This document shows positions 45,776 through 54,040 of a stretch of DNA of 64,000 nucleotides, in pieces. Made by a program: the position numbers and the translations under genes. Within the stretch, counting starts at the first letter, position 1, and the number at the start of each line of letters is the position of its first letter. The notes beneath the pieces were generated by a model. It saw only the letters and a program-made list of their open reading frames with translations, was not told where the DNA came from and did no database searches. The stretch is from positions 51,865 through 115,864 of the forward strand of contig CABZTX010000001.1 of the NCBI GenBank assembly GCA_902528875.1, read 5' to 3'. Source of the DNA: an uncultured SAR86 cluster bacterium. Its GTDB lineage: Bacteria > Pseudomonadota > Gammaproteobacteria > Magnimaribacterales > D2472.

Positions 45776-47071
45776 TTAATCTATGGCCATCTCCATATTT
45801 CTTTTTTCAGCTTCAGACCAGTCATTTGGCAAGACTTTAGATACAACAAAAAATGCAATTATCGAAGGTATGAATACAAGTGTTACGACACTTAACGAAT
45901 AACGAATTGACTCAACATTTGTATATCCCTCTCCAAAAACATCCATCAACCAGCCAGCAAATGTTGGGCCTCCTCCCATCCCAATCATATTAAGAATGAA
46001 GAAGAACAATGCTGTAGACATTGCTCTCATATTGATAGGAGCCAAGGTTTGTGCAATAGCAAAACTGGGTCCAAGATAAAAGCCAATTAAAAGTAGAAAA
46101 ACTGTGCCAAACATCAAATGAAGTCCAACACTAGGCACCCACCAGCTTGCAAGAGAAACAGGAATTGCTAAAGATATTGCTATTGCTGGCAATAGACCAT
46201 ATGCCCTTATATCTTTACTACCCCATTTATCAGCTAACTTAGCTCCAAAAAATGCTCCAGCAGCATATGTGGTTCCATTCATTATTCCCAAAATAATTAC
46301 AAGCGTTTGGAAATCGAATGTCGGATCAAGAGCAATTAAATATTTTGTTTGAAATGCTGCTTTTGCGTAGGATACAAATGACGCAAATGCTATTCCAAAG
46401 CACATTGCCCACCAAGCCGGAATTTTTAATAAACTTTTAACTGAATCTATAAAAGGTGGTTTCTCAAGTTGTGTTTCACTATCAAACTCCATCGAACCCC
46501 TAACAGGCTCCTTAAGAACAAGCTTTACAATTACAGCAAGTAAAACACCTGTTACTCCCAAAAAAATAAATATTTTGCGCCAGTCAACATCCTCATTTGA
46601 TGATCCCATTAAAGATGCTGTAACAAAATAAGCAGCCATAATTCCAAGCGGAATCCCCATAGAATAAAAACCAAGAGCACTTGCCCTCTCTTCTTTTGGG
46701 AACATGTCAGAGATTATCGAATGTGAAGGAGGACTTCCTCCAGCCTCTCCTATCCCAACTCCCATTCTTGCAAGTCCTATTTGAATAAAATTATTTGCTA
46801 AGCCTGTTAGTGCTGTAAAAGCACTCCATGTTGCCAAAGAAATAGATAAAATGTTAACCCTGCTGTATCTGTCTGCAAGCCATGCAATTGGTATAGCAAC
46901 AGTTGTATAAAAAACTGCAAAGGCGAGACCAATTAATAAGCCAAGCTGCGTATTGGTTAAATCAAGATCTTCTTGAATAAATGGCGCTAATATTCCAAGG
47001 ATTTGTCTATCAATAAAGTTAAATCCATAAACAATTGTTAATAGTATTAAAGCAAAAGTACGGTATTTCAT
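45776..47071 (-). CDS. MFS transporter
   Basis: 431 aa, about 12 TM. DRQILGILAP, LADRYSRVN loop motif. Confidence 0.85.
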   Translation of the reverse strand: MKYRTFALILLTIVYGFNFIDRQILGILAPFIQEDLDLTNTQLGLLIGLAFAVFYTTVAIPIAWLADRYSRVNILSISLATWSAFTALTGLANNFIQIGLARMGVGIGEAGGSPPSHSIISDMFPKEERASALGFYSMGIPLGIMAAYFVTASLMGSSNEDVDWRKIFIFLGVTGVLLAVIVKLVLKEPVRGSMEFDSETQLEKPPFIDSVKSLLKIPAWWAMCFGIAFASFVSYAKAAFQTKYLIALDPTFDFQTLVIILGIMNGTTYAAGAFFGAKLADKWGSKDIRAYGLLPAIAISLAIPVSLASWWVPSVGLHLMFGTVFLLLIGFYLGPSFAIAQTLAPINMRAMSTALFFFILNMIGMGGGPTFAGWLMDVFGEGYTNVESIRYSLSVVTLVFIPSIIAFFVVSKVLPNDWSEAEKRNMEMAID

Positions 47072-47081
47072 TTAGTATAAA

Positions 47082-47106
47082 ATTATATCAGGAATAAATT
47101 TATTCC
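47082..47106 (-). promoter_or_regulatory. 16-bp perfect palindrome abutting an extended -10 (TGATATAAT), 10 nt upstream of the MFS ATG
   Basis: Minus strand reads GGAATAAATTTATTCC-TGATATAAT-TTTATACTAA-ATG. The palindrome could be the doxX terminator hairpin, an operator, or both. Spacing implies a very short or absent 5' UTR. Confidence 0.3.
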
Positions 47107-47131
47107 AAGTCAATGTTCATCTCTCCCTGTG

Positions 47132-47491
47132 CTATTTATTATACTCTGGTAGCGTTACAGTGTATGCCCAATAGAAAAATATAAATTGCAGTGCTAAACG
47201 AAAATAAAGAAGACTAATAGAGTATTCTGGAAATAACTCTGGGTTTAAAGCCATATAAATATTTGCTGGATATACTGAAATTAATAATGCTAATAGTCCC
47301 CATCCAGCAAGTTTTCGTAGTCTTGCAACTAGAACGCCGAAACCTCCAATAATTTCAAAAAAACCACTTACATAAACAGCCTCATCATGAAATGGAAACG
47401 ATTCAGGCATTATAGATAGATAAAATTCAGGATTTACAAAATGGTCAATACCAAAATATATAAAAAAGGTGGCCAATCCTAAGGTGACCAT
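47132..47491 (-). CDS. DoxX-family membrane protein
   Basis: 119 aa, 4 predicted TM. Pattern GFFEIIGGFGVL typical of DoxX. Confidence 0.65.
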   Translation of the reverse strand: MVTLGLATFFIYFGIDHFVNPEFYLSIMPESFPFHDEAVYVSGFFEIIGGFGVLVARLRKLAGWGLLALLISVYPANIYMALNPELFPEYSISLLYFRLALQFIFFYWAYTVTLPEYNK

Positions 47492-47580: not shown

Positions 47581-48816
47581 TCAAATTTTTTCAGACTCTT
47601 GAATTTGACTTGCCAAAACCATCGCAATTAGAGCAAAACATCCCATTATATTGAAAGCTACAAAGTATGTATCTTGAAAACCTATTAGAATGCTTGTTAT
47701 CAAAACTCCAATTGGTTGGAGTGGTGAAACAATTGGAGATGATATGCCTCTGGCTTTCCCAAGATTATGCGCTCCAAAAGTTTTTAAGAAGCATGCAGTC
47801 ATAAGAGGCATTGCACCTCCAAAACCCAAACCAAATATAAATGCACTTAAAAGGAATATGCTTGACTCACTGAAATAAGTTAGTCCAAAGATTCCAATTG
47901 CTTGGAGGAACATCGCTATCATTGAAGGATATGCAGCTTTCATAATATCAATAAGATATCCAAATATTATTTTTCCAAGAACCCCACCAAAGGCAGATAA
48001 TGCATATGCAAAAACATATTGTTTGACTGGTAGGCCAAAAAGAATCCAAGTTTTATCTAGCCCCATTTTACTAGCATGTATTGGTAAGAATGAAAGTACG
48101 CCCATCATGGATAGAAATTGAAATGCAAATGCTAAAGAAATTATCCAAAAAACTTTTTTTGATAAAAGATCTTTTGCAGTCATCTCCTGAGAAAAAGATT
48201 CTTCTTCGTACTCTTTTTCAATACCATCTTTAACTTGATTTACAGTCTTTGGTTCATCAATCACAGTAAAAAAAATAACAGGTAAAATAATGAAAAGAAT
48301 TACAGAGGCAAAAATTACATAAACATTTCTCCAACCCACTAAGTCAAGAAGAGGATCAACAACCAAAGGAAGTACAACTCCTGAAAAAGAAATACCTACT
48401 GCTGAGATACCTAACGCTCTACCAGCATTTTTATCAAACCAATTTGAGATTAATTTAGATACAGCTAAATTTCCCATCATAATAGATCCAAGAGCAAGAA
48501 TGGTCAGATAAATCGTTAAAAGCGACCAATAAGAATTAATGAAACTTAATGAGAAAAGTCCTGCGGCATAAATTATAGCTCCAATCATCATAAAATTTTT
48601 GACAGAGTACTTATCAAGGGCGCGACCAATGATAATTGCCAAAATTGCCACAGGAATAAAATAGAATGCGGTAACCATTCCGAGCTGACTTTCTGTCATG
48701 CCTAGTTCTGATATCAGGTAAGGCCAGAAGATAGGGAAGCTATAAAAAAGGAAACCTATAACAGTGAATTCAACGGCAAGACCGGTAAATACCATTCTCC
48801 AACCGAAAAACTTCAT
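47581..48816 (-). CDS. MFS transporter
   Basis: 411 aa, about 12 TM. GRALDKYSVKN loop motif. Confidence 0.85.
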   Translation of the reverse strand: MKFFGWRMVFTGLAVEFTVIGFLFYSFPIFWPYLISELGMTESQLGMVTAFYFIPVAILAIIIGRALDKYSVKNFMMIGAIIYAAGLFSLSFINSYWSLLTIYLTILALGSIMMGNLAVSKLISNWFDKNAGRALGISAVGISFSGVVLPLVVDPLLDLVGWRNVYVIFASVILFIILPVIFFTVIDEPKTVNQVKDGIEKEYEEESFSQEMTAKDLLSKKVFWIISLAFAFQFLSMMGVLSFLPIHASKMGLDKTWILFGLPVKQYVFAYALSAFGGVLGKIIFGYLIDIMKAAYPSMIAMFLQAIGIFGLTYFSESSIFLLSAFIFGLGFGGAMPLMTACFLKTFGAHNLGKARGISSPIVSPLQPIGVLITSILIGFQDTYFVAFNIMGCFALIAMVLASQIQESEKI

Positions 48817-48823
48817 CTTTTAG

Positions 48824-48846
48824 TTACTCCCACTCAATAGTCGCAG
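48824..48846 (-). repeat. guaA 3'-end remnant 1 (att-like direct repeat)
   Basis: Plus strand TTACTCCCACTCAATAGTCGCAG; minus strand encodes T-A-T-I-E-W-E-stop, 8 nt after the start codon of the MFS gene. Confidence 0.7.
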
Positions 48847-49096
48847 TTTTATAAGCCATTATGTAGCAATGGTTTGCGAGGGGCAAATCTGTCTTTACAA
48901 CATTTCTTACTGTTTGAAATGCCCTCCTCAAAAAACACCATTACATGTAATTAAAAATGATTCAGTGTTGTGTTTAGCTAGCAATCTGCGACTTGCTTTT
49001 GTTTTAGTTGGTGTTGCATGAAAAGAGTTAGTTATTTAATCAGAAGGGTGGTAAGAGAACTTACCAAAGTACATTATAAAAAATACGAGAATTTGT

Positions 49097-49909
49097 TTAT
49101 AGAGATTGTTGTATTTTTTGATATAACACCATCATACCCTCATAGCGGTTTTCGTTAACAAACTTGTTTATCATTTCATCTGATAAAGAGGTTAAAGAAC
49201 CGTCATTATTAACCAGCATAGAGACATATTTATGCTCAGCCATCAATCTAAAAATTTCTAAGAAGTTTGGGTTAAATTCGTTATTCGGCATAAATTCTCT
49301 ACAAGGAATCTCAATAAGAAAAGTAGAATTGGTACTGGCTATTGTTTTCTCTAAACCTTGCAAAACTTGAAATTCGGATGCCTCACAATCTATTAAAAAC
49401 AAAGCCCCATTTTCATCATCTATTAATGATGCAACTATATTATCTCCTTTAACTAATTGAACCGATTCGTTAAAAGTTGTTTGGCTATTCCAGCCACTTA
49501 TTAAACTACCGCCAGTTGAACCACCATAAAAGTCAACTAACTTAAAAGTATTCCCTACGGCAAGATGTAAACATATTATCTTGTTTGAAAAATTATTCTC
49601 ATAAACATTTTTTGTAAGGACTATATAATTTTCGCTAAGCGCTTCTACAGCAAGAATAGTATCGAATTGTGATGCCAGCCTTATGGGGTAATAACCAGTG
49701 TTAGCTCCAAAATTAACAAACGTTTTGTGATGTGAAGAGAGTTTTTGAAGCACAGATAATATATGTTGCTCATAGTCTTCGCTCTGCACACCATAATAAA
49801 CTGTTCCGTCAGAAAAAATTTTTCTATGCTTTGAGCTTCTCAGTAGTAGATGATTTCTCCAAATTTGGGCAATTTTGCTAGGTACTAATTTTTTAATTTT
49901 ATTTTTCAT
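49097..49909 (-). CDS. FkbM-family methyltransferase
   Basis: 270 aa. FVNFGANTGYYPIRLA (motif I), ILAVEALSENY, LIDCEASEFQVLQG (the K-x-D-x-E-G-x-E equivalent). Confidence 0.7.
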   Translation of the reverse strand: MKNKIKKLVPSKIAQIWRNHLLLRSSKHRKIFSDGTVYYGVQSEDYEQHILSVLQKLSSHHKTFVNFGANTGYYPIRLASQFDTILAVEALSENYIVLTKNVYENNFSNKIICLHLAVGNTFKLVDFYGGSTGGSLISGWNSQTTFNESVQLVKGDNIVASLIDDENGALFLIDCEASEFQVLQGLEKTIASTNSTFLIEIPCREFMPNNEFNPNFLEIFRLMAEHKYVSMLVNNDGSLTSLSDEMINKFVNENRYEGMMVLYQKIQQSL

Positions 49910-50015
49910 ACAAATGCCAAAGATAAATATTTTTCAATTTCAGTATTAGCATAGCATTTCAACAATGTTTACAACAAGGGAAACAGCTTAGCAATGGGGG
50001 GTATAGGGCGTGTTA

Positions 50016-50038
50016 TTACTCCCACTCAATAGTTGCAC
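50016..50038 (-). repeat. guaA 3'-end remnant 2 (att-like direct repeat)
   Basis: TTACTCCCACTCAATAGTTGCAC; minus strand encodes ..V-S-E-V-V-Y-C-A-T-I-E-W-E-stop (resident GuaA ends [19 protein letters not shown]). Confidence 0.7.
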
Positions 50039-50122
50039 AATACACCACCTCTGAAACCCCTACTATGACTGTGTTTCCGAGTGCCTTTTTTATGTTTTTC
50101 GACTTTGTCAAACTTTGATACA

Positions 50123-50515
50123 TCAATATTTATAACCATTAATTTTTTGATAAAGGTAATTCCTAATTTCTTTATATATAATTAAATCCTCACTTGAAAC
50201 CTCAGAATCATCTATGGGTGGTTCATCTCCATGAGGTCCACCACCTGGACATAATTCAAACTCATTTAGATGCGACTTAAATTTTAAATGCAACCTTATA
50301 TCCTGCTGAACTTCTGAAATTTCTTCGTACTTAAGAGTTACGACAACCTTTCCTGATAAGTTAGTATTTATTTTGTCTTTTTGCTCTCTCACTATAAGAC
50401 GAGTTTCGTATATTTCTAACAGTAACCATTTAGGAAAAATTTTAAAAAAACCTTTTTTTGTAATTCCATATGCATCAAGACACTTAAGTGAATATAATAA
50501 ATTTTCATCATTCAT
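50123..50515 (-). CDS. Hypothetical protein (130 aa), island cargo
   Basis: ATG 50515 (MNDENLLYSL). The track's TTG 50530 start lies inside remnant 3. No motif recognised. Confidence 0.5.
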   Translation of the reverse strand: MNDENLLYSLKCLDAYGITKKGFFKIFPKWLLLEIYETRLIVREQKDKINTNLSGKVVVTLKYEEISEVQQDIRLHLKFKSHLNEFELCPGGGPHGDEPPIDDSEVSSEDLIIYKEIRNYLYQKINGYKY

Positions 50516-50516
50516 T

Positions 50517-50534
50517 TCATTCCCACTCAATAGA
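50517..50534 (-). repeat. guaA 3'-end remnant 3 (att-like direct repeat)
   Basis: TCATTCCCACTCAATAGA; minus strand encodes S-I-E-W-E-stop, with the stop 1 nt upstream of the ATG of the 130-aa ORF. Confidence 0.7.
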
Positions 50535-50617
50535 AGAATGTCTCTGAAACCCTTGTATAGATATTGTTTCAGAATAGTGTGTCACATTTGTGTCATACGA
50601 ACTATTTATATGCCCTT

Positions 50618-51223
50618 TCATAAACTTCTCGCAAATTTCCTTACTTTTTGCATGTTCTTTTCAAAGTCAACTTTTTTCATATTAGGAAGTACTGAATAAA
50701 ATCTTAAATACTTTGTCTTTAATCCTCCAGATTGAAATATTGATTTTTTCAATCTTCTGTATGGAATATTATCAAAGAAAGAAAAGTTAAAATAACTAAC
50801 CATTGGTCCACCATAAGTCATTGAAACAATCCCAATTTTACCCTTCAATGCTCCAGCAACTGGATATCCATAATTGCCAAAAAACTTGCTATCAGGTAAA
50901 AGTGATTTATAAGTGAAAAACCATGTGGGATGAAGGACCCAATCAATCCAGTTTTCTAGAATTACATTCATTCTTAGATTATGACAAGCACTCATTAAAA
51001 ACATTACATCAGCATTTTCAAGTCTTTTTCTGTAATCCATCACCAATTGTGGGGGAGGATTAATATCACTTCTGTAAAAAGGAAGTTGTTCTTTTTCTTC
51101 AAAAAGGTTAATCAAATCAATTTCATGTCCAACTTTTTCTGCTTCTTCAATGAAAGTATCTCTTACAGCAGCATTAAATGAATCTTTGGTATTAAAGTGA
51201 CCATAAATAATGCATATTTTCAT
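50618..51223 (-). CDS. Flavodoxin-like-fold NAD(P)H dehydrogenase (quinone) family protein
   Basis: 201 aa. MKICIIYGHFNTKDSFNAAV start and DVMFLMS pattern typical of the NQO/KefF-type Flavodoxin_2 family. Confidence 0.65.
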   Translation of the reverse strand: MKICIIYGHFNTKDSFNAAVRDTFIEEAEKVGHEIDLINLFEEKEQLPFYRSDINPPPQLVMDYRKRLENADVMFLMSACHNLRMNVILENWIDWVLHPTWFFTYKSLLPDSKFFGNYGYPVAGALKGKIGIVSMTYGGPMVSYFNFSFFDNIPYRRLKKSIFQSGGLKTKYLRFYSVLPNMKKVDFEKNMQKVRKFARSL

Positions 51224-51337
51224 TTTGTTATCTCTTCTTAATAAGAATAAAGTAATAACAGTCTATCATTTCTCGTTTATGAAAGTTAAACATGTTTACA
51301 CATTAAATTTGTTATAGGATTTAGGAATGGAATTTTA

Positions 51338-51856
51338 TTAGTTTAAGAACCAATCTGATTTATATCTTGTTCGTGGATTATCTTTAAAGTAGAAGAATCC
51401 TTCTTCAGTAAGATGAAATTCTTTATAACAATTCAATTTTCTGCCAGCAAATTCATTCTCCGCAGCAAACACTACCATAAAAAAAAGAGTATCAAGTTCA
51501 GTAAAGTCCTCAGCATTAAATGTATATCCATCTCCGTTACAGTTCAGAACTTCATCACCAAAGATTCTACCAAAGGCATATATATTGTTCTTACCATCAA
51601 CTAAATCAAAAACTTGAACTTCCTGATCTCTCATATACCTCTCTGTGTTATTTACTCTTACAAATTGCCATAAACCATCTTGTGTATTAGAGAATACAAA
51701 TATTTTTTCTTTTCTTAATTCAGGATCTTCAAGTTGATCAAGAATTATTTGACCATTACCCTCTTTCTCAATATCACTCTCTAATAACAGTCCATACTCT
51801 AATGTTGTGCAGGAAAACAAAAAAATAGTAATAAATAGTGAATATACATATTTCAT
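51338..51856 (-). CDS. Putative lipoprotein, tandem paralog B
   Basis: Lipobox-like FLFSC. Shares KIFVFSN, QVFDLVDGKN, YTFNAEDF and CYKEF with the upstream gene. ATG 51856 preferred over TTG 51865. Confidence 0.6.
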   Translation of the reverse strand: MKYVYSLFITIFLFSCTTLEYGLLLESDIEKEGNGQIILDQLEDPELRKEKIFVFSNTQDGLWQFVRVNNTERYMRDQEVQVFDLVDGKNNIYAFGRIFGDEVLNCNGDGYTFNAEDFTELDTLFFMVVFAAENEFAGRKLNCYKEFHLTEEGFFYFKDNPRTRYKSDWFLN

Positions 51857-51861
51857 AATGC

Positions 51862-52368
51862 TCAAAATATTAAACTTTGAAAAAAACTTTTACTTAAGTC
51901 CTCCAAAAATTCACTACCACCGTTTCTTGGATTATTTATTTGTTTAATGAATGCCTTCTCATTTACTTCAAAATCTTTGAAACATGTGAATGTAAAAATA
52001 GCGCCATCAAACCCTTGCTGAATTACAAAATAGTAAGTCTCAACCTCAGGAAACATCTCTGTATTAAAAGTATATGGTTGCTTATCACAATTACTGGACT
52101 CACCTGTTGAAACTCTCCCTAAGTTTCTGACACTATTTTGCCCATCTTTCAAATCAAAAATTTGAATTTCTGTATGTTTTATTTTTCGCACTTCTCCATT
52201 AACTCTAATATTCATTGGAATAGGATCCATATGATTAGAAAAAACAAATATTTTTCCTTTTTTTAATTCAGAATCAAAAAGTTCTGGAATTACTTGTCTT
52301 TGATCAACAACAGTAGTTGCGCATGATGATATTAAAAAAAAGGTTAAGATCAATCTTATGTTATTCAA
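51862..52368 (-). CDS. Putative lipoprotein, tandem paralog A
   Basis: 168 aa. Signal peptide plus lipobox LISSC. KIFVFSN, QIFDLKDGQN, YTFNTEMF, CFKDF. Confidence 0.6.
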   Translation of the reverse strand: MNNIRLILTFFLISSCATTVVDQRQVIPELFDSELKKGKIFVFSNHMDPIPMNIRVNGEVRKIKHTEIQIFDLKDGQNSVRNLGRVSTGESSNCDKQPYTFNTEMFPEVETYYFVIQQGFDGAIFTFTCFKDFEVNEKAFIKQINNPRNGGSEFLEDLSKSFFQSLIF

Positions 52369-52474
52369 TTTAATTTCCTGTGAAAGTAGTTTGTAAGAAT
52401 GTTTTATTATTGCAAAAAATTCTTATTAGAAAAACAGTAATTTTATTAAAAAAATATACAAAAAATTTATATAC

Positions 52475-54040
52475 TCATTCCCACTCTATTGTTGCAGGAG
52501 GCTTGTTTGAAATGTCATAGACCACTCTACTAACATCTTCTATCTCATTAACTATTCTATTCGATACAAGTTCTAGAAAATCGTAAGGTAGGTGCGCCCA
52601 CTTAGCAGTCATAAAATCTACAGTTTCGACAGCTCTTAAACCAATTACCTCTGCATATCGTCTTTCATCACCAACAACTCCAACTGATTTAACTGGCAAA
52701 AGGACTGCAAAAGCTTGGGAGACTTGATCATACAAATCAGCCTTGATTAGTTCTTCAATAAATATATGATCTGCTTCTTGAAGAATAAGAGTTTTATTTT
52801 TTGTAACTTCTCCCAAAATCCTTACACCAAGACCTGGACCTGGAAATGGATGCCTATTTATTATTTCTTTAGGTAAACCTAATTCAATTCCCATTCTTCT
52901 TACTTCATCCTTGAATAAGTCTCTTAGTGGTTCTACTAAATCTAATTTCATCTCTTCTGGAAGGCCTCCAACATTATGATGTGATTTAATAACTCGTGCC
53001 TCATTGGATTCCGAACCTGATGACTCAATTACATCTGGATAAATAGTTCCCTGAGCAAGATATTTAATATCTTTTAATTTTGCTGCTTCAGAATCAAAAA
53101 CATCTATAAATGTTCTGCCAATAATCTTTCTTTTTTGCTCAGGATCTGTTTCACCTTTTAGATGTCTTAAAAAAATATCAGCACTCTCAGATTTAATAAC
53201 ATTCAAATTCATATTATCTTTAAATGTCTTCATAACAGAGTTAGCTTCTCCTTTTCTAAGTAACCCATTATTTACAAAGACACATATAAGATTGTTATCA
53301 ATAGCTTTATGAAGTAGTGTCGCCGTTACAGAAGAGTCAACGCCTCCTGAGAGGCCTAATAAAACTTTTTCATTACCAACTTGTTTTTTGATGTCATCTA
53401 ATCTACTTGAAATAAGATCATCCATCTTCCAATCAGTTTTAGCATTGCATATATCAAATAAAAAATTTCTAAGAATATCTTTACCGTTTTCTGTATGTGT
53501 TACTTCTGGATGGAATTGAATACCATAAATAGGAAGGCTATTGTGCTCCATGGCTGCAATAGGCGATGTTGATGTAGACGCAGCTAAATTAAAATCCTCT
53601 GGCAAGTCTTGAACTTGGTCACCATGACTCATCCAAACATTAATATTCTTATTTAAATTATGAAATAATTTTGACTCATTCATTACTTCGAGCTCTGCGT
53701 GTCCAAATTCTTTTTGATCTGCAGATATCACTGAGCCTCCCATTTGCTCAGCCAAAGTTTGCATGCCATAACAAATACCAAGCACAGGTATATGTAAATC
53801 AAATACTATTTTAGGTGCTCGTGGTGTATAACTTTTTGTAACTGAATTTGGTCCACCGGATAAAATAATTCCAACTGGTTTTACCTCTTTTATTTTATCC
53901 TCTGAAATATCCCATGGTAGTATCTCTGAATATACATCATTTTCTCTTACTCTTCTGGCTATAAGTTGGGTATATTGTGATCCAAAATCTAAAACAAGAA
54001 TAGTATCTATTTTTTTATCAGTTACTGAGAGTTTGGTCAT
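52475..54040 (-). CDS. guaA: GMP synthase (glutamine-hydrolysing)
   Basis: 521 aa. GATase domain (GICYGMQ, HPE), [12 protein letters not shown]-loop, C-terminal KPPATIEWE. Confidence 0.97.

Follow-up and report, generated by a model that had tools for sequence, protein, structure and literature searches.

SAR86 bacteria are among the most abundant heterotrophs of the surface ocean; they are uncultured and have streamlined genomes with few recognizable mobile elements and a large flexible gene pool. We analyzed a 64-kb stretch of DNA from an uncultured SAR86 cluster bacterium (here called the window, meaning the whole stretch) and, within it, the 3.65-kb interval between guaA, which encodes GMP synthase, and a gene for an MFS transporter. 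Copies of the guaA 3′ end split this interval into three segments, and the comparisons below indicate that the locus is a real integration hotspot whose cassettes are probably mobilized in trans.

Copies of the guaA end and the segments between them

The target gene, guaA (52475..54040, minus strand), is a 521-amino-acid (aa) open reading frame (ORF) with Pfam GATase and GMP_synt_C domains, and its last codons plus the stop (18 bases) form the attachment core. An initial annotation of the window had placed four same-direction copies of this terminus at 52475, 50517, 50016, and 48824, and every string was found at its coordinate and on the minus strand. The codon differences that it had listed also hold. 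The resident copy, at the guaA-proximal junction (52475..52492), reads ACA ATA GAG TGG GAA TGA in the sense direction, core copy 3 (50517..50534) reads TCT ATT GAG TGG GAA TGA, and core copies 2 (50016..50033) and 1 (48824..48841) both read ACT ATT GAG TGG GAG TAA. The left side of the resident core follows the guaA lineage, as the sequence ACAATAGAG is also present in the SAR86 relative L001 (L numbers denote the loci and contigs compared). The 13-mer TCCCACTCAATAG is not common elsewhere in the window: it has three exact matches compared to 0.16 expected, a number reached by 0 of 100 shuffles. A degenerate 18-mer for T/S-I-E-W-E-stop matched just the four sites (0.00 expected), and in a repeat search of the window, the guaA-terminus copies were the top direct-repeat family, with a length of 22 nt and spacings of 1192, 501, and 1958.

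The cargo of the three segments, here called cassettes A, B, and C, is that given by the annotation (an FkbM methyltransferase, an orphan, and a flavoprotein with two paralogous lipoprotein-like ORFs), and all of it is on the minus strand. Cassette C (1.94 kb, 50535..52474) lies next to guaA and contains the two paralogous lipoprotein-like genes (51862-52368 and 51338-51865) and the flavoprotein gene, a Flavodoxin_2/FMN reductase (FMN_red) gene at 50618-51223. Its 3′ end is an arm (50535..50600) with the direct-repeat pair TGACACAaatgTGACACAC (50577-50595) and an imperfect palindrome TTCTGAAAC...GTTTCAGAG (50542-50574), after which come 10 nt and the core. The same arm family is found in L005, L001, L213, and L320, in the last case in a cassette upstream of an integrase element. 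Cassette B (0.48 kb, 50039..50516) has an orphan ORF (50123-50512, 129 to 135 aa) without a Pfam family. Its arm (50039..50116) has AAAGTTTGACAAAGT (50102-50116) and the palindrome CTCGGAAACAC...GGGGTTTCAGAG (50049-50081), followed by GTGGTGTATTGTGCAACT, and ∼100 nt of it are conserved with the arms in L007 (two copies), L009, L020, and L218. Cassette A (1.17 kb, 48842..50015) carries an FkbM-family methyltransferase gene (49097-49909; Pfam Methyltransf_21), and its arm (48842-48907), with ATTTGCCCCTCGCAAACC and the inverted repeat AAACCATT...AATGG (48853-48888), belongs to a family common to L016, L275, L211, and L298.

Core copy 1 marks the distal end of the array and is located 7 nt upstream of the start codon of the MFS transporter gene (47581..48816, minus strand; Pfam MFS_1), which is the conserved distal flank, or the B′ side of an empty site. 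Under an accretion model, this copy would represent the ancestral end of guaA, displaced from the gene. Neither the array interval nor the ∼15 kb on either side of it contains a gene for an integrase, a transposase, or replication. A six-frame search of the whole window with a clade-specific integrase profile (described below) also gave no match. The window has no tRNA gene, and the GC skew shows no sign change at the array.

Cassette arms, the exchange region, and variation among relatives

The cassettes of the window were compared with a collection of 188 junctions and 88 unique complete cassettes. The 88 cassettes range from 114 bp to 12.9 kb in size, with a median of 1142 bp, and their ORFs are mostly co-oriented with guaA (121/149, or 84% of the coding length). 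Eight cassettes have no ORF; these minis have interiors of 114 to 206 bp and are made up of just the arms, both of which are kept. The cargo includes SAM methyltransferases, AT3/SGNH acyltransferases, MAPEG proteins, flavodoxin-like reductases, sulfotransferases, D12 DNA methylases, MscS channels, and glyoxalases, which are typical flexible-genome functions.

The initial annotation had described the repeated core, and to this we add a conserved 3′ arm of ∼65 to 100 nt. Its features are as follows. First, every cassette has at its 3′ end an imperfect palindrome of the type (C)TGAAACCC...GGGTTTCA(G) or CCCTCGCAAACC...GGGTTT, and the distance from the palindrome to the core, 8 to 22 nt, is characteristic for each arm family. 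Second, an exact 7-mer pair, 9 to 13 nt apart (nearly always 11 nt), is present upstream of the palindrome in 48% of the non-redundant arms compared to 3% of the cassette interiors. The paired motifs are TGACACA, ATACAAA, TGACAAA, and GTTACA, and the sequences TACAAAC and TGTGACA are ∼40- to 60-fold enriched in the 3′ arms. Third, the arms of a family are 88 to 95% conserved over 65 to 100 nt across unrelated cargo and across genomes with guaA ∼75% identical, whereas the identity between different families is 41 to 44%. Finally, an arm profile that did not include the core matched solely beside cores in ∼1 Mb of sequence from the window, the SAR86 flanks, and metagenomic contigs. The cassette 5′ ends showed no common motif.

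Analysis of the junctions, with the consensus ACT-ATTGAGTGGGA-RTRR, points to where recombination occurs. Positions −6 to −1 are linked to the left-flank family (z of 4.9 to 8.5), whereas from position +11 on, the linkage is with the right-flank family (z of 3.8 to 7.4) and not with the left. The positions between them, 0 to +10, are invariant except for +2 (T in 39/44 junctions). Since the linkage switches from the left to the right flank across this invariant block, strand exchange is placed inside the 11 bp ATTGAGTGGGA. The block contains the octamer GAGTGGGA, the site used by the resistance island GIsul2.

The window GuaA is 97% identical to that of the SAR86 single-cell amplified genome (SAG) AG-325-J11 and ∼80% identical to those of 19 other SAR86 genomes. 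Across SAR86 loci, one to five copies of the guaA end are counted downstream of the gene, and about half of the 17 to 18 informative genomes have at least two. Among the 60 non-SAR86 genomes retrieved by the same query, none has a second copy within 10 kb. A metagenome scan with the cassette-arm motif plus the core detected at least 120 contigs, with arrays of up to six cores, some of them from lineages with GuaA just 57 to 63% identical to that of the window.

The repeats had been attributed to site-specific integration by serial accretion, and the variation among relatives bears this out, as the interval is strongly polymorphic and the breakpoints between relatives fall exactly on the cores. 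For example, the flanks of the window and L001 are 94% identical, and the two arrays differ by whole cassettes. L001 has an additional 2.9-kb cassette immediately after guaA that is absent from the window; the lipoprotein/flavoprotein cassette (cassette C) is 90% identical in L001 and is found there one step further in, at array position 2; and in place of cassettes B and A, L001 has one different 2.9-kb cassette, with both arrays ending at the MFS gene. Likewise, L016 and L017 have flanks that are 91% identical, but the 3.8-kb array of the former corresponds to a single core in the latter. Empty sites, which had been anticipated, were also found: in L010, guaA is joined straight to the MFS gene, and in L006 and L013, it is joined to a flavoprotein gene that in L014 and L007 stands behind cassettes. 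In L001, L009, L015, and L018, the MFS gene follows the last core. Common cassettes are 91 to 92% identical between genomes whose flanks are 74 to 78% identical, a difference that reads as a signature of horizontal exchange.

The flavoprotein gene alone forms a single-gene cassette in L007 and L274. Together with the two paralogous lipoprotein genes, it is cassette-borne in some SAR86 genomes, where these genes occur alone, fused, or in reversed order (window, 50618-52368; L007, 12968-13701; L274, 96-790; L230, 744-2712). Downstream of the array, at 45776-47491, the window encodes another MFS transporter along with a GST and a small DoxX/MauE-like membrane protein; several SAR86 genomes have such an MFS gene pair in their conserved distal flank.

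An integrase clade at the guaA core

Elements that pair the core with a recombinase had been expected to exist, and they do. An ORF of L286 that begins 178 nt past a core encodes the N-terminal half of a member of an integrase family of ∼400 to 450 aa. A word-indexed homolog search with this fragment gave only 2 matches, compared to 355 homologs from an exhaustive search. The full-length members of this clade have Phage_integrase and SAM_5 (SAM-like) domains with the catalytic R, K, R-H, and Y conserved. A clade-specific profile detected, besides L286, intact integrases in L320 and L218 and a truncated one in L229, the genes in these three contigs starting 120 to 240 nt after a core. The truncated copies in L286 and L229 lie inside SAR86-type arrays, and the guaA end with which L229 starts is 97% identical to its counterpart in the SAR86 locus L017. 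The absence of a recombinase noted in the initial annotation is thus true of the window and of the 20 SAR86 loci compared; it does not extend to the system, which has integrase-plus-resolvase elements and decayed integrase genes in its arrays.

The clade is far from the commonly modeled integrases. Generic integrase screens (phmmer and a hidden Markov model from P4-type and Firmicutes integrases) gave no match, a false negative given the result of the clade-specific profile. The clade integrases score 30 to 50 bits compared to cut-offs of 220 to 335 for the Xer and integron models, and no NCBIfam model reaches its cut-off. No relatives were found in 50,697 phage records or among PDB sequences. 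In tblastn searches of 72,556 plasmids, the integrases of L320 and of clade member P0003 showed generic similarity of 20 to 27% at most, with no match on the Acinetobacter or IncC carriers of GIsul2. A single-sequence AlphaFold model of the L286 fragment was unusable (predicted local distance difference test score, 36).

The clade integrase is usually paired with a small (serine) resolvase, in elements of 2.7 to 4.4 kb at a guaA-type core. One example is the P0003 element, with the gene order guaB-guaA-core-int-resolvase on at least 24 contigs. This element is 4.4 kb long, is bounded by cores, and ends in a GGGTTTCAGAG arm and core. When its copies in different hosts, which belong to at least two divergent lineages, are compared, the identity rises from 50 to 78% in guaA to 100% exactly at the core, and their distal flanks are different cassettes, some of which are known from other arrays. 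Four (A/G)TACAAACT copies are located between attL and int, and another pair precedes attR. The integrases P0010 (host GC content, 0.59) and P0083 (GC content, 0.34) are also found directly after guaA. In L320, a compact 2.7-kb element between two cores encodes the integrase (Pfam, 3.9e-15), a resolvase (2.6e-39), and a small lipoprotein; three TTTGACACA copies precede int, and the last 65 nt of its 3′ arm are 91% identical to the arm of cassette B in the window.

One clade member, P0008 (442 aa; L356, 7865-9329), lies after plsY and not guaA, which suggests that the clade has been retargeted to other gene ends. It has two ATACAAAsT repeat pairs upstream of int. Since the repeats are kept at plsY, they follow the integrase and not the target, the behavior expected of putative arm-type binding sites. 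On L358 (116-5152), an element integrated at guaA encodes, besides a clade integrase, a resolvase, an HNH nuclease, a HIT protein, and a weak REP_ORF2-G2P-like product; it may be a satellite-like relative that replicates. L040 (PBYV01000056.1), a metagenome-assembled genome contig labeled Acidimicrobiaceae, has, with L349, a GuaA 96.5% identical to that of the P0003-element host; the closest GuaB relatives of L040/L349 among the sequences compared are from SAR86 (64%), and the Acidimicrobiaceae label looks doubtful.

We consider it likely that the 3.65-kb interval is a tandem array of three integrase-less cassettes, inserted serially by site-specific recombination at the guaA-end core, with a clade integrase acting in trans as the most likely enzyme. 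The observations that carry this reading are the repeats, the core-bounded polymorphism, the position of the exchange block, the arms specific to the arrays, and the integrase elements that have the same core and common arms. Each insertion, with strand exchange within the invariant 11 bp, would rebuild the guaA end and push the older cassettes and a core copy toward the MFS gene. The cassette 3′ end would keep its recombination arm, consisting of paired direct repeats one helical turn apart, the imperfect palindrome, the 8- to 22-nt spacer, and the core. The enzyme would be a member of this divergent tyrosine-integrase clade, usually encoded beside the small serine resolvase and carried by the 2.7- to 4.4-kb sister elements, which use the same core for insertion and have arms of the same families. 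Cassettes without an integrase gene would then be excised and integrated when a sister element is in the cell, in the way that CR2-sul2, a unit without an integrase gene, is moved by the GIsul2 Int at this guaA octamer. The mobilization in trans that had been proposed for this locus is therefore probably correct, now with partner elements that have the same core and arms. By extension, the clade integrase would act on the cassettes of the window, and the window array would still be mobile.

Several results weigh against this reading. No recombinase was found in the 20 SAR86 genome loci (±10 kb) or in the window. The intact SAR86-type integrase elements, L320 and L218, are on short metagenomic contigs without guaA, and their assignment to SAR86 rests on their GC content (0.32) and on arms 88 to 95% identical to SAR86 SAG arms. 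Circular junctions of single segments had been predicted, and neither a circular excision product nor a tandem self-junction was seen in the contigs examined. The cargo of cassettes A and B has no match in any other locus compared, and their individual mobility is hypothetical. The metagenomic sample was selected by the arm motif, and its frequencies are therefore biased. In L010, L013, L009, and L018, the flavoprotein/lipoprotein genes are located further downstream with no flanking cores; since these genes are core-less residents in those SAR86 genomes, some of the variation could stem from native genes being rearranged, and native genes and cassette cargo appear to interconvert. Finally, the arm palindromes form weak single-strand hairpins (z of −1.3 to −2.9). 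They were rejected as intrinsic terminators, with scores below canonical in a terminator scan, and no Rfam family matches the arms. For these three reasons, the palindromes are better regarded as candidate double-stranded protein-binding sites, which may bind the resolvase or another factor. The direct repeats are putative arm-type sites of the clade integrase. The arm hairpin was also considered as a generic genomic repeat, which was rejected as the rest of the window and the flanks have no copy of it.

Some of these points would also be expected if the array were a fossil, that is, if the segments were decayed remnants of integrase-bearing elements or prophages at guaA that had lost the recombinase by deletion and were no longer mobile, the variation being due to independent ancient insertions and deletions. 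The truncated integrase genes inside arrays (L286 and L229), the lack of an integrase in the 20 loci and the window, the lack of circular forms, and the use of guaA ends by prophages in other taxa all agree with such a history. Even so, we regard it as unlikely. The conservation of the arms across unrelated cargo, in genomes with such divergent guaA genes, is unexpected for neutral scars, and the ORF-less mini-cassettes keep exactly the arms. One cassette may be found at different array positions with different neighbors, and cassettes are more alike between genomes than the flanking core genes are. Moreover, a median size of 1.1 kb and 84% co-orientation are unlike the products of random deletion.

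It is very improbable that a host recombinase, either XerC/XerD (as for integrative mobile elements exploiting Xer [IMEX] and pdif modules) or an IntI encoded elsewhere, moves the cassettes and that the clade integrase is not the enzyme. The absence of a GC-skew switch means that the array is not a terminus/dif locus, although the SAR86 arrays themselves are recombinase-free and IMEX at dif typically form tandem arrays of this kind at one site. Similarly, the geometry is integron-like (small, co-oriented units with the recombination site at the 3′ end), but the core has neither GTTRRRY nor a dif-like dyad, and no IntI is present within ±15 kb. The clade integrases fall far under the Xer and integron cut-offs, and because they are found exactly at the core with matching arms, they are the simpler candidate. 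As for a “replacement” island, in which the block would be swapped by homologous recombination through the conserved guaA/MFS flanks and the short repeats would be incidental, both flanks are indeed conserved across SAR86 and such islands are common in marine bacteria (PMC4033161), but this explanation is hardly credible given that the identity steps at the core itself and not at variable flank points, that single cassettes and not whole intervals differ between the window and L001, that the linkage switches within the 11-bp block, and that a dedicated integrase is found at the same core.

Serial insertion of cassettes by an integrase acting in trans thus remains the preferred explanation, and it bears on the flexible gene pool of SAR86. 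The guaA locus offers a sequence-defined mechanism whose components are one acceptor site at the guaA end, an 11-bp exchange block, recognizable arms, and a candidate integrase and resolvase. With the arms plus the core as a key, metagenomes can also be searched for the cargo of SAR86 cassettes. A broader proposal is tentative, and we think it somewhat doubtful. SAR86 and some neighboring marine Gammaproteobacteria may have an integron-like cassette system that originated independently of IntI/attC. The guaA end would be its fixed acceptor behind the strongly expressed guaBA, hundreds of different co-oriented, recombinase-free cassettes of ∼1 kb would carry a modular 3′ arm, and roaming integrase-plus-resolvase sub-clades matched to the repeat types (ATACAAAC, TGACACA, TGACAAA, and GTTACAC) would shuffle cassettes within and between lineages. 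If true, this system would be a main way in which a globally abundant and uncultured heterotroph with a streamlined genome gains genes.

Comparison with known systems

Outside SAR86, the guaA end serves as an ordinary attB site for prophages, with the integrase gene beside it. For instance, many predicted prophages of an organism with 26 to 30% GC abut the guaA 3′ end on L123, L124, L149, L195, L326, L329, L332, L333, L337, L338, L343, L344, and L346; L195 has a second core 4 kb away, and in the enterobacterial contigs L126 and L148, a P4-type integrase lies beside guaA. A scan of viral sequences with the arm plus core gave 0 matches, and a scan with the bare 14-mer gave mostly chance matches inside phage genes. 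L139 and L113, considered as attP candidates, were rejected since the matches are within coding regions with no integrase nearby. A core-plus-stop scan of viral contigs found guaA ends beside prophages of unrelated taxa, none with SAR86 arms. Two jumbo-phage contigs without guaA, L330 (203 kb, at ∼11249) and L322 (108 kb, at ∼172; both in reverse-complement coordinates), have a 21-nt identity to the guaA end (GCAACTATTGAGTGGGAGTAA). This core is just downstream of a DNA methyltransferase gene and a gene for a 368-aa protein, the contigs diverge 22 nt past it, and it could represent either the attP of a phage or a cassette that was captured. In the 624-kb IMG/VR contig L334 (∼3892-3830, minus strand), three copies of GTTGAATGGGAATAG stand head to tail behind a guaA stop and form a guaA-terminus micro-array in an unrelated organism with 35% GC.

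The use of the guaA 3′ end by GIsul2, stated in the initial annotation, is correct and involves the same octamer. GIsul2, a genomic island of Gammaproteobacteria, integrates at 5′-GAGTGGGA-3′ and leaves direct att copies. It encodes a tyrosine integrase and resG, and experiments showed that CR2-sul2, a unit bounded by att copies and lacking an integrase, is excised and integrated by the GIsul2 Int (PMC9376610). The SAR86 core contains this octamer, and a small resolvase is common in kind to both systems. However, GIsul2 is a single island of 15 kb that is found in clinical bacteria and carries genes for transfer, replication, and resistance, whereas the SAR86 locus is an array of ∼1-kb units. 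The clade integrase is not detectably GIsul2-type, and the GIsul2 backbone (alpA, resG, rep, and trb) is not present. The octamer exploited by a clinical resistance island is thus also used in the open ocean by a different integrase clade.

The locus has the features of an additive island: co-oriented repeats of the target end, core-bounded polymorphism together with empty sites, and a recombinase at the same att core in the population. Tandem repeat-bounded arrays of this kind are known at tRNA genes, namely, the additive island at tRNA-Lys in Methylopumilus (PMC10872708) and the tycheposon islands of Prochlorococcus (10.1101/2020.12.28.424599), and the SAR86 case is therefore not a wholly new principle. 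Neither of the two papers mentions guaA or SAR86, and our literature search found no SAR86 guaA island. The systems are alike in that older elements are pushed inward by successive integrations, few elements bear an integrase, integrase fragments are scattered through the islands, and the hosts are streamlined oceanic or lake bacteria. They differ in that the SAR86 target is the end of a protein-coding gene and in that the SAR86 units are smaller (median, 1.1 kb), mostly single-gene, and co-oriented, with conserved 3′ arms. The SAR86 elements are set apart from tycheposons, which are defined by a tRNA target and a tycheposon-type integrase with replication/helicase-primase modules, by both their target and their gene content (int plus resolvase, with a weak REP-like gene in L358 only). 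The additive island/tycheposon picture of plankton genome plasticity is thereby extended from tRNA genes to a protein-coding gene end.

IMEX and other Xer-dependent elements differ in their use of a dif site, whereas the SAR86 array is at a coding-gene end with no GC-skew switch and has a dedicated integrase. A parallel may be drawn with cis-mobilizable elements (CIMEs) and integrative mobilizable elements, such as those of Streptococcus thermophilus, in which att-bounded elements without recombination genes stand in tandem with a related integrase-bearing element (ICESt3, an integrative conjugative element) at the 3′ end of a housekeeping gene. CIMEs can be excised by the integrase of the related element. 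However, they are large and are linked to conjugative elements in Firmicutes, whereas the SAR86 units are about ten times smaller and no conjugation genes were seen.

The likeness to integrons is threefold. First, the cassettes are small, mostly single-ORF, and co-oriented downstream of a fixed site. Second, they have a conserved 3′ element with an imperfect inverted repeat. Third, they have no recombinase of their own and would rely on a tyrosine recombinase supplied in trans. In contrast to integrons, whose arrays adjoin an intI gene with attI and a promoter, the SAR86 array has no intI next to it, with no recombinase within ∼15 kb. The core is ATTGAGTGGGA and not GTTRRRY, paired direct repeats and an AAACCC/GGGTTT palindrome take the place of R″/L″/L′/R′, and the integrase of the SAR86 system is itself cassette-borne. 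What the SAR86 locus adds to these known kinds is a previously uncatalogued integrase clade as the likely partner and a defined 11-bp block, in an ecologically dominant uncultured lineage and with integron-like features.

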